A DNA stretch of 64,000 nt from Candidatus Bathyarchaeota archaeon (GCA_963768425.1 CAVYHV010000014.1:96001-160000); one strand, 5' to 3'. Counted from the stretch's first letter, positions 4,042-11,389 are shown. Notes: generated from the sequence alone by a model not told the origin. Made by a program: numbers and translations.

Positions 4042-5175
4042 ATGGATACTTTGGTTGATGACGTCGGAAGTTTTCCCCTGCCCCCACGCGTGAACAAGGA
4101 GGCTTTCAGCGAAGCCTATCGCCGGTCAAGGGCGGCGGCAGTTGAAGGCAAAGACCTGCGGGCAGATGCTTTTTTGGAGACCACCTTTTGTTCCATCGTG
4201 CTTGAATCCTTCAGGTTCAAGCTTGCGTCGGGTTTAGATGTGGCGAATTTTCCTCAACACTATGAAGGGATGAGACAGGTTGGAGACGTTTTGCATGCGG
4301 CAATGGAAACGGGTTCCTTTCTTGTGAATGAGAAGTCAGCGGTTTTACCTGAGGTCTACCTGATCGGTCAAGAAGCCAAGACGCTAAGCGAAGAACTGGG
4401 CAGAAAAATCCAGCTGAGAGTCTCAATTTTTGGCCCGCTTGAACACTACTTGCACGAAATCGGGAACACGCCTTACCAAGATGTCTTGGAGGGTTTGGCT
4501 GGGACGATTCAGCGATTCGCGAAAAACAGCGTATTAAACAACAAGTACATCGAAACGGCTGTGGTTTCGATTGATGAGCCAAGTTTCGGCTTCAACAACA
4601 TTCAAGCCCCATCTGACGTCATCTGCGGAGTACTGGAGAAAACTTTTGACTTCAAAGGCGCAGTCCGTCAGATTCATCTTCATTCGGCTGCTGGAGTCCA
4701 CGATTTGCTGTCTGTAAAAAACCTTGATGTCCTCTCGTTCGAGTACGCCGCTTCACCGAAGAACATTGACGCAGTCCCAAAAAGCATGCTTGAAGGGGCG
4801 GATAAGCAGATTCGCGTAGGAATCGCCCGAACAGACATCGATAGCATTTTGGCTGAGCTTTACGAGAAAGGAGTTGGGAAACCTTTAGCCGACCAGTTGG
4901 TTGAACCAAAAGAGACGATAGAGAAAAGGTATAGGGTTGCGAAACAGAAATATGGCGATCGGATGACTTTTACGGGTCCTGACTGCGGGTTAGGAGGCTG
5001 GCCTAGCCAAGAATCGGCACAACTTTTGCTGGAACGCACAGTAAAAGCGGTAAAACTGGCCCAAAAAACTAGCATAAAAAATGAAGAAAGAAAAAGGGTT
5101 TGCCTTAACAGGATTATTCGGTTGATGTTGGTTTCTTCTTCGCCTGTTCCTGCTGTGCTTTGGTCAGGTCTTTGA
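4042..5175 (+). CDS. cobalamin-independent methionine synthase, catalytic-domain (MetE core) family
   Basis: DVGSFP, SIDEP, HLH, GPDCGLGGW motifs; true stop is probably TAG 5070-5072 (A6 run at 5063-5068 one base short). Confidence 0.8.
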   Translation: MDTLVDDVGSFPLPPRVNKEAFSEAYRRSRAAAVEGKDLRADAFLETTFCSIVLESFRFKLASGLDVANFPQHYEGMRQVGDVLHAAMETGSFLVNEKSAVLPEVYLIGQEAKTLSEELGRKIQLRVSIFGPLEHYLHEIGNTPYQDVLEGLAGTIQRFAKNSVLNNKYIETAVVSIDEPSFGFNNIQAPSDVICGVLEKTFDFKGAVRQIHLHSAAGVHDLLSVKNLDVLSFEYAASPKNIDAVPKSMLEGADKQIRVGIARTDIDSILAELYEKGVGKPLADQLVEPKETIEKRYRVAKQKYGDRMTFTGPDCGLGGWPSQESAQLLLERTVKAVKLAQKTSIKNEERKRVCLNRIIRLMLVSSSPVPAVLWSGL

Positions 5176-6626: not shown

Positions 6627-7400
6627 TTAGGAGTCCAAGAGACTTTGCAGCAGCTTGATGGCTGACCATGCTGCCAGGGCGCTGGTATGGGGGTTGTCTG
6701 GGTGAGGGTCGTTTGCAAAACGCAGAAACATCTCACCGAACCGCCAGCTAACCTGGATTTCATGCGTGTTCCGCTTAACAGAGGGATCAGAGACTACGCG
6801 AACTTTTACTCTGACAGGCTTGACCGTCAATGCCAAAGTTGCAGCGACATTCATCTCCCGCGGAAACAGCTTCACAGCCTCCTCCGCGTACCCTTCGTAA
6901 ACAACAGCCTCAACCTTGTTGTCCTTGCTAAGAGCATTTGGGTTTTTGCGAGAAGTCAAAGTTACCTCATCGATCCCCGCCAGGGAGGCGCTGGAAAGAG
7001 CGTCCAACCCGCCGATAGCTCCAGAAGGGACATGAACCCGCCCTAAATCAAATTCCAACCCAAGCAGTGCACCGGTGCTCATCACGATGACCTCGGCGCC
7101 TGAAGAAGCAATCTTCGGTACAAAATCCCGAGCAGCCTTCTGCGACGCGGCTTCCACAACGACTTTAGGCTTTTTGGCGAGAAGTTCATCCACGCTCTTT
7201 ACAATTGTGACGGGAAACTTTAGGGCACCCATGAGTTTCTGCGCTTTCGAGTCGTCGATGTCGTAGACAAAAAGTTCGTCGCACACAACGAGTTTGCGCT
7301 CGATTGCTTCAGCTAAAACTGTGCCGATTGCGCCACACCCGATTAAACCAACCTTCTTTTTTGCTTTGCCACTCACGGTTTGTGCCTTCATGTTTCCCAT
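6627..7400 (-). CDS. nadX: L-aspartate dehydrogenase
   Basis: GLIGCGAIG, VEAAS, SGAIGGLD, FP..MNVAA, NPHTSALAA; start uncertain (7400, 7391 or 7376). Confidence 0.88.
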   Translation of the reverse strand: MGNMKAQTVSGKAKKKVGLIGCGAIGTVLAEAIERKLVVCDELFVYDIDDSKAQKLMGALKFPVTIVKSVDELLAKKPKVVVEAASQKAARDFVPKIASSGAEVIVMSTGALLGLEFDLGRVHVPSGAIGGLDALSSASLAGIDEVTLTSRKNPNALSKDNKVEAVVYEGYAEEAVKLFPREMNVAATLALTVKPVRVKVRVVSDPSVKRNTHEIQVSWRFGEMFLRFANDPHPDNPHTSALAAWSAIKLLQSLLDS

Positions 7401-7473
7401 TTTGCTTCTAGACGTTAAAGTTGACGGTAGGAAAACTAAAATACCTCCTAAAAACATTATCCCCTAAAGAAAA

Positions 7474-7564
7474 GTTCTCGGGGAGCTGGGAAAGACCCGG
7501 CTGAGAGGACGGCTATTTGCTGTCGACCCTTAGAACCTGAACCAGGTAATGCTGGCGGAGGGAA
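7474..7564 (+). ncRNA. TPP (thiamine pyrophosphate) riboswitch
   Basis: GGGGAGC...GCTGAGA...GACCC TTAGAACCTGA ACCAGGTAATGCTGGCGGAGGGAA matches the THI-box consensus; lies directly upstream of thiamine genes. Confidence 0.93.
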
Positions 7565-7567
7565 AAA

Positions 7568-8113
7568 ATGAACGCAAATATATTGAATGTAGCCGATAAA
7601 AACCAGATTTCTCAAACAAAAAGATTGTCATTAACAGGAGTTATGGCGGCGCTAATCGCTGTAACAACTATTATTGCAATACCTTTGCCACCTCCTCTTT
7701 CAACCATCAACTTGGCGCCTGTAATCATATTCACAGTATGCATACTTCTTGGACCATGGGTAGGCTTCACTTGTACTGTGATTGGGTGCGGCATCGGCTA
7801 TTTGGCTGGAACAAGTCTTGGAACTATAATTGTCCCACCCGGATTCCTGTACATCTACCTGGTCGGATTAGTAGCTGCACGAGGTCCAATGGCATTAGCT
7901 GTCGGTGGATTAAGAAAGAAAAGTGAGCCCGCAGGCATGGTTCTGGGAGTTGTCATTGAGACAATGATTTTCTTCAGTATTGACTTCATTCTATTCGGGC
8001 TTGGATTCGCGTTATTTGATCTAGGAACCTTTGTTGACTTAGTATTTGTACCCATAACTGTCGCGGTTCTTATTGCCATTAGAAGAATTTTCGATACCAA
8101 GTACCTATCCTAG
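7568..8113 (+). CDS. ECF transporter S component (thiamine or precursor)
   Basis: GVMAALIAV..IAIP..INL..LLGP..G pattern, about 6 TM; follows TPP riboswitch. Confidence 0.85.
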   Translation: MNANILNVADKNQISQTKRLSLTGVMAALIAVTTIIAIPLPPPLSTINLAPVIIFTVCILLGPWVGFTCTVIGCGIGYLAGTSLGTIIVPPGFLYIYLVGLVAARGPMALAVGGLRKKSEPAGMVLGVVIETMIFFSIDFILFGLGFALFDLGTFVDLVFVPITVAVLIAIRRIFDTKYLS

Positions 8114-8123
8114 ATGACAAAAA

Positions 8124-8801
8124 ATGGGCAGCAACACACGTTTTAAACAGGAACAAACAGCTAAAGATTATGAATCATATTATGAAACAAAATATAGAAA
8201 CGTCGACTTGCTTGAGAAGAAACTGATAAAGCAACTTTTTGAGCAGTTTCCTGAAGCAAAGAATGTTTTGGAAGTAGGTTGTGGAACCGGGCATTTTACT
8301 ATGTGGATAAAATCTTCTCTTCTCATAGAATCCATCGGCATCGACACATCAAAAGCCATGCTTAAAGAGGCAAAAATTCGTTGGCCTCAAGGCCCTTTGC
8401 TTCAAGGAGAAGCTACTCGATTACCGTTTATGGATAAATCCGTAGATGTTGTGGCGTTCATAACAAGCTTAGAATTCATCCAAGATGCCGTTGGAGCTCT
8501 TGAGGAAGCAGCGAGGGTAGCAAAGATCGGAATAAATCTGGGTCTTATGAATAAGAACAGCATAGGCACGTTGAAAAAAAGGTTTCAGGCTGCAACTCTA
8601 AAAGACTCATTCTATAGGCAAGCAAAATTTTATTCAGCTTCAGATATAGAAAAAATGTTGGAAAACATTCTTGCAAAAAAACATAATATTGCATTTTGCC
8701 GTACCACGGTTTTTCCTAAACCGTTCAGTGACAAGGAGTCCTCGATTTTCTTGTTCGGTGGGTTTCTTGGAATAGCAATAAAAATAGGGGATACCCCATG
8801 A
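8124..8801 (+). CDS. class I SAM-dependent methyltransferase
   Basis: VLEVGCGTG, LPF.D.S.D, SLEF..D..ALEEAARV. Confidence 0.9.
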   Translation: MGSNTRFKQEQTAKDYESYYETKYRNVDLLEKKLIKQLFEQFPEAKNVLEVGCGTGHFTMWIKSSLLIESIGIDTSKAMLKEAKIRWPQGPLLQGEATRLPFMDKSVDVVAFITSLEFIQDAVGALEEAARVAKIGINLGLMNKNSIGTLKKRFQAATLKDSFYRQAKFYSASDIEKMLENILAKKHNIAFCRTTVFPKPFSDKESSIFLFGGFLGIAIKIGDTP

Positions 8802-9850
8802 GTAAGACTGGAAAATTTCCTTATGACTTAATCGAGAAACTCATTTACCCTAAACTGGGCGCAGAGAGGGCGGAAGTGCTTATTGGTCCAGGTGCAGGCC
8901 GCGACAACGCAATAATCAGCTTAAAAGGAGGTCAAGTGTTAATAGCAACCGCTGATCCGCTGTCAGTCATACCTGCGTTGGGAGTTAAGGACTCAGCGTA
9001 CATCTCGGTCCATTTGCTTGCATCAGACTTAGTGACTTGCGGTTTTGCCCCGCAGTTTTTTATGGTTAACCTTAACTTACCCCCTGAAATGAGCGACAAA
9101 GACTTTGAAACATACTGGAAAACTATAGATGAAGAATGCAGAAAACTCGACGTCGCCATCGTCGGAGGGCACACAGGCAGATATCCAGGGTCAAGCTACA
9201 CAGTTGTCGGCGGAGGCGTAATGATGACGATTGCGCCTGAAAAACAATACGTTGCGAGCACTATGGCAAAACCTGGCGACCTGATAATAATGACCAAAGG
9301 AGTTGCAATAGCTACAACCGGGATACTTTCAAGAGTCTTTCCAAAAACAGTTGAAAAACGATACGGTAGCTCATTTCTGACTAAGGCTCAGCAATACCTT
9401 GGTTATTTTAGTGTGGTTGAGGATGCGTTAAGTGCGGCTTCAGCAGGTTTAAGGGATCGCGGGGTTACAGCCATGCATGACGTCACAGAAGGCGGATTAC
9501 TAGGAGCACTATACGAGTTTTCTGAGGCATCCAAAACAGGCTTAGAGGTAGACCTTTCTAAAGTTATAGTCACTGAGGAAACAAACGGGATTTGTCAACT
9601 GTTCAAGATTTCTCCTTACTCATCCCTAAGCGAAGGAACGCTTATCCTAACTGTTAAACCCGAAAAAGTCTCCGCCGTTCAGCAAGCATTAGATTTGAAT
9701 GGGATAAAAAACTCCGTGATCGGAAAAATGACTAACGCAAGGGATGGCAGATGGATTAAATCGGCAGATCAACGGGAGACTTTGCGTAAACCTGACTCTG
9801 ACCCTTATTGGGAAGCGTATCGCAAAGCAAGTAGTGAGGGTTGGAAATGA
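8798..9850 (+). CDS. AIR-synthase-like (PurM/HypE/ThiL superfamily) ATP-binding protein
   Basis: GPGAGRD, IVGGHT, AMHDVTEGGL, SEGTL. Confidence 0.88.
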   Translation: MSKTGKFPYDLIEKLIYPKLGAERAEVLIGPGAGRDNAIISLKGGQVLIATADPLSVIPALGVKDSAYISVHLLASDLVTCGFAPQFFMVNLNLPPEMSDKDFETYWKTIDEECRKLDVAIVGGHTGRYPGSSYTVVGGGVMMTIAPEKQYVASTMAKPGDLIIMTKGVAIATTGILSRVFPKTVEKRYGSSFLTKAQQYLGYFSVVEDALSAASAGLRDRGVTAMHDVTEGGLLGALYEFSEASKTGLEVDLSKVIVTEETNGICQLFKISPYSSLSEGTLILTVKPEKVSAVQQALDLNGIKNSVIGKMTNARDGRWIKSADQRETLRKPDSDPYWEAYRKASSEGWK

Positions 9851-10485
9851 AAAATCGTCATAAGCTTGCGGGTCTGTATCTTGTTGTCTCTCCAATTTTG
9901 CCTGATGAACAACTGTTGATTGCTGTTGAGAAGGCGTTGGACGGAGGAGTTGACATTCTGCAGTTTTCAGCTAGCAAAGAGAGTGTGGAGATGAGTATTT
10001 TAGCGAATGGACTTTCCGGTTTAGCAAGAAAGCATGGAATCCCGTTTATTGTTAACAATAACTTGGAGTTAGCTAGAGAAGTTAAAGCGGAGGGTGTTCA
10101 CTTGGACACTTTTGAGGTTTTTCCGGCCGAAGTTCGATCCCTACTCGGGGACGAATCAATAGTTGGTTACACTGTGAACTTTAATTTAGAAAAAACCAAA
10201 TTGGCGGAAAAAGTAAACGCAGATTACGTATCATTTTGCTCAGTTTTTCACCAATGCCCCGGTAACCAATGCCCAATAGTGCCAATTGACAAAATAAAAG
10301 AGGTAACATCAAGCACAAAGCTTTCGGTCTTCGCTGCAGGCGGAATAAACCTTGAAAACATCCTTTTGGTTCTTCAAGCGGGAGTCGACGGAGTTGCAGT
10401 AACAACTGCCATCCTTAAATCAAAAGACCCCCAGCAGACCGCGAAAGACCTCAAACAAGTTATAACTGAATATGGAAAAAATTAG
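9847..10485 (+). CDS. thiE: thiamine-phosphate synthase
   Basis: GLYLV, GGVDILQ, FIVNN, GVHL, AAGGI, GVDGVAV; ATGA overlap with previous gene. Confidence 0.88.
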   Translation: MKNRHKLAGLYLVVSPILPDEQLLIAVEKALDGGVDILQFSASKESVEMSILANGLSGLARKHGIPFIVNNNLELAREVKAEGVHLDTFEVFPAEVRSLLGDESIVGYTVNFNLEKTKLAEKVNADYVSFCSVFHQCPGNQCPIVPIDKIKEVTSSTKLSVFAAGGINLENILLVLQAGVDGVAVTTAILKSKDPQQTAKDLKQVITEYGKN

Positions 10486-10510: not shown

Positions 10511-11389
10511 TTATTTTTTAAGCTCGGACAGAACAAAGTTGACTATCTCTTCGGCTATGTTGATTTTGGCAACCACCTGCAGACCCTTCCAGCCTGGCTG
10601 ACTATTCACATCTACGATTCGCGGTCCATCAGGTCCTTCAAGGATGTCTACTCCAGCAATTTTGCAACCCACAGCTCGTGCTGACTTTATGGCTAAGTCT
10701 TCGAATTCCTTGCTGATTTCAGCCGGTGCAGGTTTGGCTCCTCTGCTGTAATTGGTTTTCCAGCCTTCTGCCACACGCCTCATAGATGAAACGACTTGGT
10801 CGCCAATTACGAAAGCTCGTATGTCAGAGTGCCCGTGGGGTACGAATTCCTGCATGTAAATGACTCCGTGGTGGAAGGTGATGGCTTTGAAAATGGTGTC
10901 GGCGATGTCTATGTCGTTTATCCGTGTTGCGCCTTGTCCGCGTGATCCAAAAATCGGTTTAACCACTATGTCGCCGCCCAACTCATCGAATGCTTTTAGG
11001 GCTTCGTTAACGCTTTCCGTGGCTAAAGTGCGTGGGACTGGAACCCCGATGTCCTCCAGGAGCGCAAGGATGTCGTATTTGTCTACACAATGCTCTATAG
11101 CTGTTGGCGGGTTGACCATGTAGAAGCCTTGGCGTTCAAGCTTGTAGAGCATGTCCATTCGGAAAACGAGTTCTTCTAGTGAGCCGCGTCCGATGGGTCG
11201 GATGATGAGTGCGTCTAAATCATCCAGCAGGCTTGTGTTGTTGGCTTTGAAGTATGGTTTGTACGCGAGCCTTGCGACGAGCCGTGGAAAAGTGAAGCAT
11301 TCATACTGGATGCCTCGCTTAATTAATGCTTCCCGAACTTGGCTGCTGCTCCATGCTTCCGGGTTCCGAGTCATTATCCCAAATTTCAA
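10511..11389 (-). CDS. RimK-family ATP-grasp alpha-L-glutamate ligase (MptN/CofF-like)
   Basis: VVKPIFGSRG, QEFV, DIRAFV, WKTNYSRG, AGVDIL..VNSQPGW. Confidence 0.9.
   Translation of the reverse strand: MKFGIMTRNPEAWSSSQVREALIKRGIQYECFTFPRLVARLAYKPYFKANNTSLLDDLDALIIRPIGRGSLEELVFRMDMLYKLERQGFYMVNPPTAIEHCVDKYDILALLEDIGVPVPRTLATESVNEALKAFDELGGDIVVKPIFGSRGQGATRINDIDIADTIFKAITFHHGVIYMQEFVPHGHSDIRAFVIGDQVVSSMRRVAEGWKTNYSRGAKPAPAEISKEFEDLAIKSARAVGCKIAGVDILEGPDGPRIVDVNSQPGWKGLQVVAKINIAEEIVNFVLSELKK

Follow-up and report, generated by a model that had tools for sequence, protein, structure and literature searches.

A predicted direct-translation-attenuation TPP riboswitch upstream of a thiamine operon in a Bathyarchaeion

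The window analyzed here is a stretch of 64,000 nucleotides (nt) from Candidatus Bathyarchaeota archaeon (GCA_963768425.1, CAVYHV010000014.1:96001-160000). It harbors an aptamer for thiamine pyrophosphate (TPP) in the leader of four closely spaced or overlapping genes, which include those of an energy-coupling factor (ECF) S component, a ThiL-like protein and ThiE. A Shine-Dalgarno (SD)-like GGAGG is part of the aptamer. Judged by its sequence, the element is a conserved TPP riboswitch of the known direct-translation-attenuation type, which is common in its archaeal class. The features of the locus are compiled in Table 1.

An archaeal 16S rRNA gene, which scores 1470.8 bits against the archaeal small-subunit (SSU) model, is located on the contig from which the window is taken (C14). 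The closest named relatives of the first gene of the operon, which ends at 8113, come from metagenome-assembled genomes of Candidatus Bathyarchaeota or Bathyarchaeia archaea and from Candidatus Bathycorpusculum termitum. By its archaeal 16S rRNA gene and the names of these relatives the host is a Bathyarchaeion, which the original prediction had considered probable. The genome has a size of 2.96 Mb and is 91% complete.

Table 1. Features of the TPP riboswitch locus. Positions refer to the window unless a contig of a relative is named.
Feature	Position	Strand	Basis or description
Predicted archaeal promoter	7430-7443	+	B recognition element (BRE)-like GGAAAA, then TATA-like CTAAAATA (7436-7443); whole element GGAAAACTAAAATA
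Predicted transcription start site (TSS) region and 5' leader	7464-7479; TSS about 7464-7470	+	Promoter geometry; contains GUUCU 7474-7478
Nominal P1	7474-7478 (GUUCU)/7564-7568 (AAAAA, including the A of ATG)	+	Rfam alignment
TPP aptamer core	7479-7563	+	RF00059 alignment, 64.7 bits
P2	7479-7482/7527-7530	+	Rfam alignment and 75-sequence alignment
P3	7485-7489/7497-7501	+	Rfam alignment and 75-sequence alignment
CUGAGA motif	7501-7506	+	Read in the sequence, alignment
P3a	7508-7512/7520-7524	+	Rfam alignment and 75-sequence alignment
J2/4	7531-7535	+	Rfam alignment and 75-sequence alignment
P4	7536-7539/7558-7561	+	C7536-G7561, C7537-G7560 and U7538-A7559 in the family register
P5	7542-7545/7552-7555	+	Rfam alignment and 75-sequence alignment
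SD-like GGAGG	7557-7561	+	G7557, P5/P4 bulge; G7558, variable N; A7559, G7560 and G7561, P4 3' strand
Junction GA	7562-7563 (G7562-A7563)	+	Rfam alignment and 75-sequence alignment
A-rich spacer and start codon	7564-7570, ATG 7568-7570	+	Sequence, Rfam register, open reading frame (ORF)
181-aa ECF-type S component, distantly ThiW-like	7568-8113	+	PF07155, 35.5 bits; predicted first regulated gene
Class I S-adenosylmethionine (SAM)-dependent methyltransferase	8124-8801	+	PF08241, 68 bits; all NCBIfam matches below cut-offs
Aminoimidazole ribonucleotide (AIR)-synthase-related (PurM-fold), ThiL-like protein	8798-9850	+	PF00586, PF02769
ThiE, thiamine-phosphate synthase	9841-10485	+	PF02581, 129 bits; TIGR00693, 131 bits (cut-off 145)
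T-rich tract TTTATTTTTT after thiE	10511-10520	+	Read in the sequence
Paired aptamers in two relatives	L036:2909-2991 and 4269-4353; L037:2869-2956 and 4222-4307

The TPP aptamer

The TPP model of Rfam (RF00059) matches positions 7469-7580 of the plus strand over its positions 1-105, untruncated, with 64.7 bits and an E-value of 2.1e-10 (Infernal). The gathering score of the family is 54.3 bits. The full THI-box aptamer that had been proposed at this place is borne out by this search, and so are the coordinates of its 3' end, where ...GGCGGAGGGAA ends at 7564, three nucleotides (AAA) before the ATG at 7568. RF00059 is the sole Rfam match in the window, and this is the only TPP match in the whole genome.

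The family requires CUGAGA after P3, ACCUGA at P4 and GCG-N-AGGGA at the 3' end. These ligand-pocket motifs are present as CUGAGA, AACCUGA (7534-7540) and GCGGAGGGA (7555-7563). Helix and covariation statistics were derived from an alignment of 75 related aptamers, in which the columns of the ligand-pocket motifs are invariant. Pairing amounts to 90% in P2, 99.7% in P3, 100% in P3a and 89.5% in P4/P5. The covariation score of 0.287 compares with 0.140 in shuffles, none of which reaches it (0/500), and with at most 0.131 in slid registers. Changes on both sides are found at 15 helix pairs. The equivalents of C7536-G7561 and C7537-G7560 are C-G in all 75 aptamers.

The element is widespread. RF00059 matches are present in 34 of the 36 other sampled genomes of the genus, in 9 of 24 genomes that represent other families of the order and in 93 of 151 genomes of the class (48 of 79 genera; 92 genomes above the cut-off). 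A set of 151 genomes drawn from the phylum contains 30 genomes with a match, and outside the class there are 20 among about 131, as counted from per-genome rows and family tallies. The original prediction had described TPP switches as reported mainly in Thermoplasmatales, a picture that this survey of Bathyarchaeia does not uphold. Thirteen proteins encoded downstream of the aptamer in relatives were scanned. Twelve of them are related to thiamine (ThiT PF09515, ThiW PF09512, a cytosine/purine/thiamine-type permease, ThiC and solute-binding proteins), and the remaining one has no Pfam match.

The Shine-Dalgarno sequence

The 16S rRNA encoded on the same contig was located by the Rfam SSU search and ends with ...GGAUCACCUCCU (short form CACCUCCU), including the anti-SD sequence CCUCC. 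The GGAGG of the aptamer is complementary to this CCUCC at the 3' end and is presumably used by the ribosome. Six nucleotides separate GGAGG from AUG, and the start codon follows 4 nt after AGGGA, which ends at 7563. The ATG stands directly after the aptamer and overlaps the nominal 3' strand of P1. The claim that there is no room for a separate expression platform holds.

The regions upstream of 2316 ORFs with 150 codons or more were examined in this genome. A GGAGG starts at positions -17 to -11 in 6, 4, 16, 18, 9, 7 and 4 cases, respectively, with a background of about one per position. The maximum lies at -15/-14, and GGAG, GAGG and AGGA peak in the same region. Because GGAGG is enriched before long ORFs, the genome uses SD sequences, albeit for a minority of the called ORFs.

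The spacing is maintained in relatives. Start codons were assigned for 80 distinct aptamer loci. In 50 of them the start codon is found 3-12 nt after AGGGA (direct type) and in 13 more than 12 nt after it (long spacer), with 17 left unassigned by the crude ORF rule. In the set L001-L038, which comprises 36 distinct sequences, the 32 aptamers with a resolved start have their start codon 4-10 nt after AGGGA (mode 7). This places GGAGG at -17 to -11 (mode -14), which equals the genome-wide SD range. Orthologues of the first gene start at the equivalent place. The variable N of GCG-N-AGGGA is G in 45 of the 50 direct-type aptamers versus 7 of the 13 with a long spacer, the Rfam consensus being u. 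This G does not serve P4, because no more than 12 of the 75 aligned sequences have a standard pair at columns 80 and 99.

The P1 helix

In the window, nominal P1 consists of three A-U pairs out of five, and across the alignment of 75 aptamers 54.4% of its positions are paired. The 36 distinct sequences of L001-L038 form 2.58 of 5 pairs on average. None of them forms all five, and a local duplex of -3 kcal/mol or below is found in 0/36. The best local P1 duplex has a mean energy of -0.72 kcal/mol in the direct type (n = 50), whereas it reaches -5.77 kcal/mol in long-spacer aptamers (n = 13); values of -3 kcal/mol or below occur in 3 and 9 cases, respectively. Textbook P1 helices are present in other lineages (CCCCU/AGGGG, GCAUCC/GGAUGC and GGUAGCU/AGCUACC), some of them with an obvious downstream platform. 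Because P1 strength tracks the architecture and other lineages keep P1, its near-absence looks like a property of the direct type and not like decay.

Other registers of P1 were inspected at offsets of -3 to +11 between leader and 3' flank in 38 distinct sequences, and no consistent pairing was found. Inspection by eye had suggested that the leader pairs with the first codons (as GUUC/GAAC in the window), but comparison with shuffles in RNAduplex gave no support for it.

Proposed mechanism

The locus probably encodes a direct-translation-attenuation TPP riboswitch that would act as an OFF switch and lies at the very beginning of an mRNA for archaeal thiamine salvage. GGAGG belongs to the pyrophosphate-sensing arm, where it takes up the 3' strand of P4 together with the bulge between P5 and P4. 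The start codon 6 nt further on occupies the place where the 3' strand of a normal P1 lies. As long as TPP is absent, the small ribosomal subunit, with CCUCC at the 3' end of its 16S rRNA, could open the short arm of P4/P5 and what little there is of P1. With TPP, the two arms would be clamped and P4 locked, and GGAGG and the start region would be buried. The first cistron would then not be translated.

Transcription presumably starts close to the aptamer, TPP presumably binds to it and binding would lower translation. This functional idea is supported only by comparison of sequences. The original prediction had TPP binding occlude the ribosome site directly. The spacing, the SD usage of the genome and the anti-SD sequence agree with that part of it by comparison, but its placement of the SD sequence in P1 is not retained (see below).

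Several points weigh against the proposed mechanism. The GGAGG of the window starts at -11, which is the short edge of the genome range (4 cases) and not its peak. SD-like 4-mers precede only about one tenth of the called ORFs, so SD-independent initiation is also common in this genome. AGGGA is purine-rich and conserved anyway, and some SD likeness thus comes free. The relatives are close kin (34/36 sampled genomes, one genus) and counts such as 45/50 are therefore not independent. P4/P5 is predicted to fold partly without ligand. The TSS and the transcription of the leader are predictions. Finally, by the account of archaeal riboswitches in Born et al. 2021 (PMC8241225), none of the natural TPP riboswitches of archaea has yet received experimental validation.

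Promoter and 5' leader

A promoter with BRE- and TATA-like elements is predicted upstream of the aptamer (Table 1). In 37 distinct upstream regions of relatives, the motif C(Y)TAWAW has 26 matches starting at -47 to -37 from GGGG. A fixed distance of 36 nt between TATA and aptamer, seen by eye in three sequences, was rejected, as the systematic count spread over -47 to -37 with some matches elsewhere. Because of this spread only a short leader can be claimed. Archaeal transcription is expected to start about 23 nt after the end of the TATA element. This puts the probable 5' end of the mRNA about 10-15 nt ahead of the aptamer core. A search for RNA sequencing runs that contain the locus found none. 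Three metatranscriptome contig sets contained only 40-nt matches to 7524-7564 with four mismatches and unrelated GC-rich flanks. These matches are TPP aptamers of other organisms and are therefore uninformative on expression or the TSS at this locus.

The minimum free energy (MFE) structure of 7466-7600 (RNAfold, -39.0 kcal/mol, z -2.62) contains a helix of 5 bp between GUUCU 7474-7478 and AGAAC 7532-7536. P4 is shifted and A7559-G7562 are unpaired. Three pairings compete for GUUCU: the weak P1, GGGAA and AGAAC. The leader might elaborate the proposed mechanism as an upstream switching strand. In the ligand-free state GUUCU would pair with AGAAC (J2/4 and the first C of P4), and in relatives AAGGU(UU) would pair with (GA)ACCU(G). 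This would break P4 and free GGAGG until TPP displaces the leader, which would then make the few A-U pairs of P1. Such a switch is possible, but on balance unlikely.

The MFE structure contains exactly the helix that such a switch would need. Additionally, pairing of the leader with J2/4-P4 in L001-L038 (n = 36) has a mean energy of -4.14 and a mean z of -1.27 against shuffled leaders, with 25% of the cases at p <= 0.05. P1-type pairing of the leader with the 3' flank has a mean z of only +0.06 against shuffles (RNAduplex). The leader types GUUCU, GGUCUC, GGUAAUUC and AAGGUUUA are all complementary to GAACC. On the other hand, the invariant target leaves no scope for covariation, and the leaders share a common descent. 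The complementarity is missing in four leaders (L007, L012, L014 and the first aptamer of L037) and is weak among 39 other sequences that include direct-type aptamers (mean z -0.32). The predicted accessibility of the SD sequence, as measured for CGGAG, which is one base off GGAGG, is 0.538 with shuffled leaders and rises to no more than 0.568 with native ones, an increase being seen in 30 of 42 cases. In the window itself there is no rise (0.58 vs 0.61). Conservation of the leader could also reflect the transcription start region.

Extended to the lineage, this would be a TPP variant with neither a stable P1 nor a 3' platform, the SD sequence in the pyrophosphate-sensor helix and a leader of 7-15 nt as the sole switching strand. 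Such a variant is doubtful. A toggling of its leader between J2/4-P4 pairing (ligand-free, SD free) and a vestigial A-U P1 (TPP-bound, SD buried) is to be regarded with the same reserve. If true, it would be the first translational riboswitch mechanism defined in archaea, and no earlier TPP switch would have its expression platform upstream.

Further alternatives

The aptamer might act on the RNA instead of on translation, by 5'-end-dependent decay or early transcription termination, in which case the SD likeness would merely result from the conservation of AGGGA. Such an action would be suited by the predicted position of the aptamer, whose first nucleotide should be no more than about 15 nt from the 5' end. 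Furthermore, a block of the first cistron alone would not obviously control genes 2-4; gene 2 has no visible SD sequence, and genes 3 and 4 are preceded by GGGG or GAGGG. However, there is no oligo-T between the aptamer and the ORF or in the first codons, and the tight spacing of 3-12 nt to the start codon and its match to the SD spacing of the genome would be left unexplained. An action at the RNA level is therefore improbable.

The original prediction assumed that the 3' strand of P1 overlaps GGAGG and pairs with TTCTC at 7475-7479, so that the SD sequence would be hidden by a TPP-stabilized P1. The complementarity as such is real: UUCUC 7475-7479 and GGGAA 7560-7564 match at five positions (U-A, U-A, C-G, U.G and C-G). 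In the predicted thermodynamic ensemble, the GUUCUU leaders of several relatives pair with GGAGGGAA, and the unpaired probability of the SD region in L005, L006, L023 and L027 is 0.02-0.24 compared with 0.24-0.43 for shuffled leaders. Yet this pairing is not P1. It would use G7560 and G7561, whose partners in the P4 of the ligand-binding fold are C7537 and C7536 (C-G pairs in 75/75 aptamers), and G7562-A7563 is an invariant junction. The Rfam register places P1 at 7474-7478/7564-7568, and because the same register puts 7557-7561 in the P5/P4 bulge and the 3' strand of P4, the SD sequence is not in P1. Moreover, the pairing is lost in relatives with the leaders GGUAAUUC, CCGGUUA, CCCACAA and CUCAAUA, and the leader of the window has no effect on the accessibility of the SD sequence (0.58 vs 0.61). 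An SD sequence hidden in the 3' strand of P1 is thus very improbable.

That the aptamer is a decaying or non-functional remnant, as the nearly absent P1 (3/5 A-U pairs) might suggest, is hardly credible in view of the score above the curated threshold, the presence in 34/36 other genomes of the genus and 93/151 of the class, the invariant ligand-contact motifs, the compensatory changes throughout and the thiamine-related proteins downstream (12/13 scanned).

Downstream and neighboring genes

The S component shares 27% identity with the ThiW (PF09512) protein of a relative (pairwise E-value 5e-4) and has no NCBIfam match. It may represent an unnamed subfamily of thiamine-precursor S components related to ThiW. 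It matches only the riboflavin-type ECF S model, and weakly, yet is kept behind TPP aptamers in L005, L031-L035 and L037. The methyltransferase, which is without a known role in thiamine metabolism, sits between the S component and the ThiL-like gene.

The ThiL-like protein reaches 88.2 bits with TIGR01379 (thiL), for which the cut-off is 184, and scores nearly equally with HypE (77) and SelD (74). By these scores it is not a standard ThiL. The start codon of ThiE may be the ATG at 9847, which is preceded by GAGGG. Transcription termination in archaea occurs at oligo-T, and the T-rich tract after thiE is a possible terminator that would close the operon.

Upstream, a divergent gene on the minus strand (6627-7457) encodes a NadX-like aspartate dehydrogenase (PF01958, PF03447). 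Only about 20 nt separate the start of this gene from the BRE/TATA element predicted for the thiamine operon, so that the two promoters share a very short intergenic region.

A ThiN-domain protein (PF10120) of the ThiR type, which controls archaeal thiamine genes at the level of transcription, was not found in the genome, which is 91% complete, but is present in 4/4 archaeal control genomes. This speaks for the proposed mechanism, although absence from an incomplete genome is not proof. ThiT was likewise not found in this genome.

Variant arrangements in relatives

In L036 and L037, two relatives of which one is titled Ca. Bathycorpusculum termitum, there are two TPP aptamers at a distance of about 1.35 kb from each other (Table 1). 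The first aptamer precedes the ThiW-like S component known from the window. The second is followed by a protein that bears, at its N-terminus, the ILAEI-type signature of ThiT from relatives. The genome of the window, in contrast, has one aptamer and no ThiT match.

In another lineage of the phylum (L069, L072, L075, L082 and L083; aptamer at about 1512-1595), the TPP aptamers have a strong P1 of 7 bp and are followed by a platform of 43-53 nt, within the 45-55 nt downstream, and a gene for a solute-binding protein. The platform includes the anti-SD-like CUCCUUCU and a second segment complementary to the 5' strand of P1 (GGCGGUAG ... CUACCGCC). By its sequence, this is a classical two-state expression platform.

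In L024 (1512-1620), a close relative, ACG instead of ATG is found at the position of the start codon (AAAAAACGCAAAC, compared with AAAAAATGAAAC in L010 and L030), and no ORF is obtained by the rule used. A pseudogene, a sequencing error or a non-canonical start could account for this.

Comparison with known systems

According to the survey of McCown et al. 2017 (PMC5473149), archaea use few riboswitch classes and use them sparingly, TPP and fluoride riboswitches being known. Its census lists 79 representatives in Euryarchaeota, 6 in Crenarchaeota, 1 in Korarchaeota and 1 in Thaumarchaeota, with no mention of Bathyarchaeota there. Born et al. 2021 (PMC8241225) name the fluoride switch of Thermococcus as the only experimentally determined natural archaeal riboswitch. 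A search of the available literature collection found no paper describing a TPP riboswitch of Bathyarchaeia.

The element is found in most sampled Bathyarchaeia and in several other lineages of the phylum, as opposed to censuses that call archaeal riboswitches sparse (PMC5473149). Its usual minimal form, in which the ribosome-binding site (RBS) would lie within the sensor, provides a compact and testable case of translational control through an SD sequence in an archaeal class without cultured members. In practice, the element can also serve as a marker for genes of thiamine transport and salvage, including the S component, the methyltransferase and the PurM-fold protein of this operon. The understanding of how TPP riboswitches work is unchanged. 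An SD sequence within the aptamer is not a new mechanism, and the element is one more ordinary representative of a known family, from a lineage that has been little studied.

In the thiM riboswitch of Escherichia coli, P1 is stable and a separate anti-SD hairpin in a downstream platform sequesters the SD sequence. The aptamer of the window resembles it in the architecture of P1-P5, CUGAGA and GCG-N-AGGGA, and would share its OFF logic and the control of translation initiation. The SD sequence of thiM is located in the downstream platform, whereas that of the window lies inside P4 and J5-4, 6 nt before AUG.

Closer counterparts are the bacterial riboswitches described by Barrick and Breaker 2007 (PMC2258182), for whom direct translation attenuation is defined by a distance of no more than 15 nt between the aptamer core and the start codon. 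An RBS buried in the core is, by their account, most common for TPP, prequeuosine-1 (preQ1) and SAM-I riboswitches, and for TPP the purine-rich conserved 3' region substitutes for the RBS (citing Rodionov et al. 2002). In the window, the ATG at 7568 follows 4 nt after AGGGA, and the putative RBS is inside the core. The bacterial direct-attenuation TPP riboswitches have the aptamer family, the start within 15 nt of the core, the purine-rich conserved 3' region as RBS (putative in the window) and the lack of a separate platform in common with the window. The original prediction had inferred bacterial-style translational control; the layout is known from bacteria, and the mechanism itself is suggested by comparison. 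The window differs from the bacterial direct type in its archaeal host, the predicted BRE/TATA promoter, the very short leader and a P1 of a few A-U pairs. The preQ1 and SAM-I riboswitches with an SD sequence in the aptamer (PMC2258182) are alike in that the ligand-stabilized aptamer itself occludes the ribosome site, as proposed here. They differ in fold and ligand, and the RBS of SAM-I riboswitches is in the 3' strand of P1, whereas that of the window is in P4.

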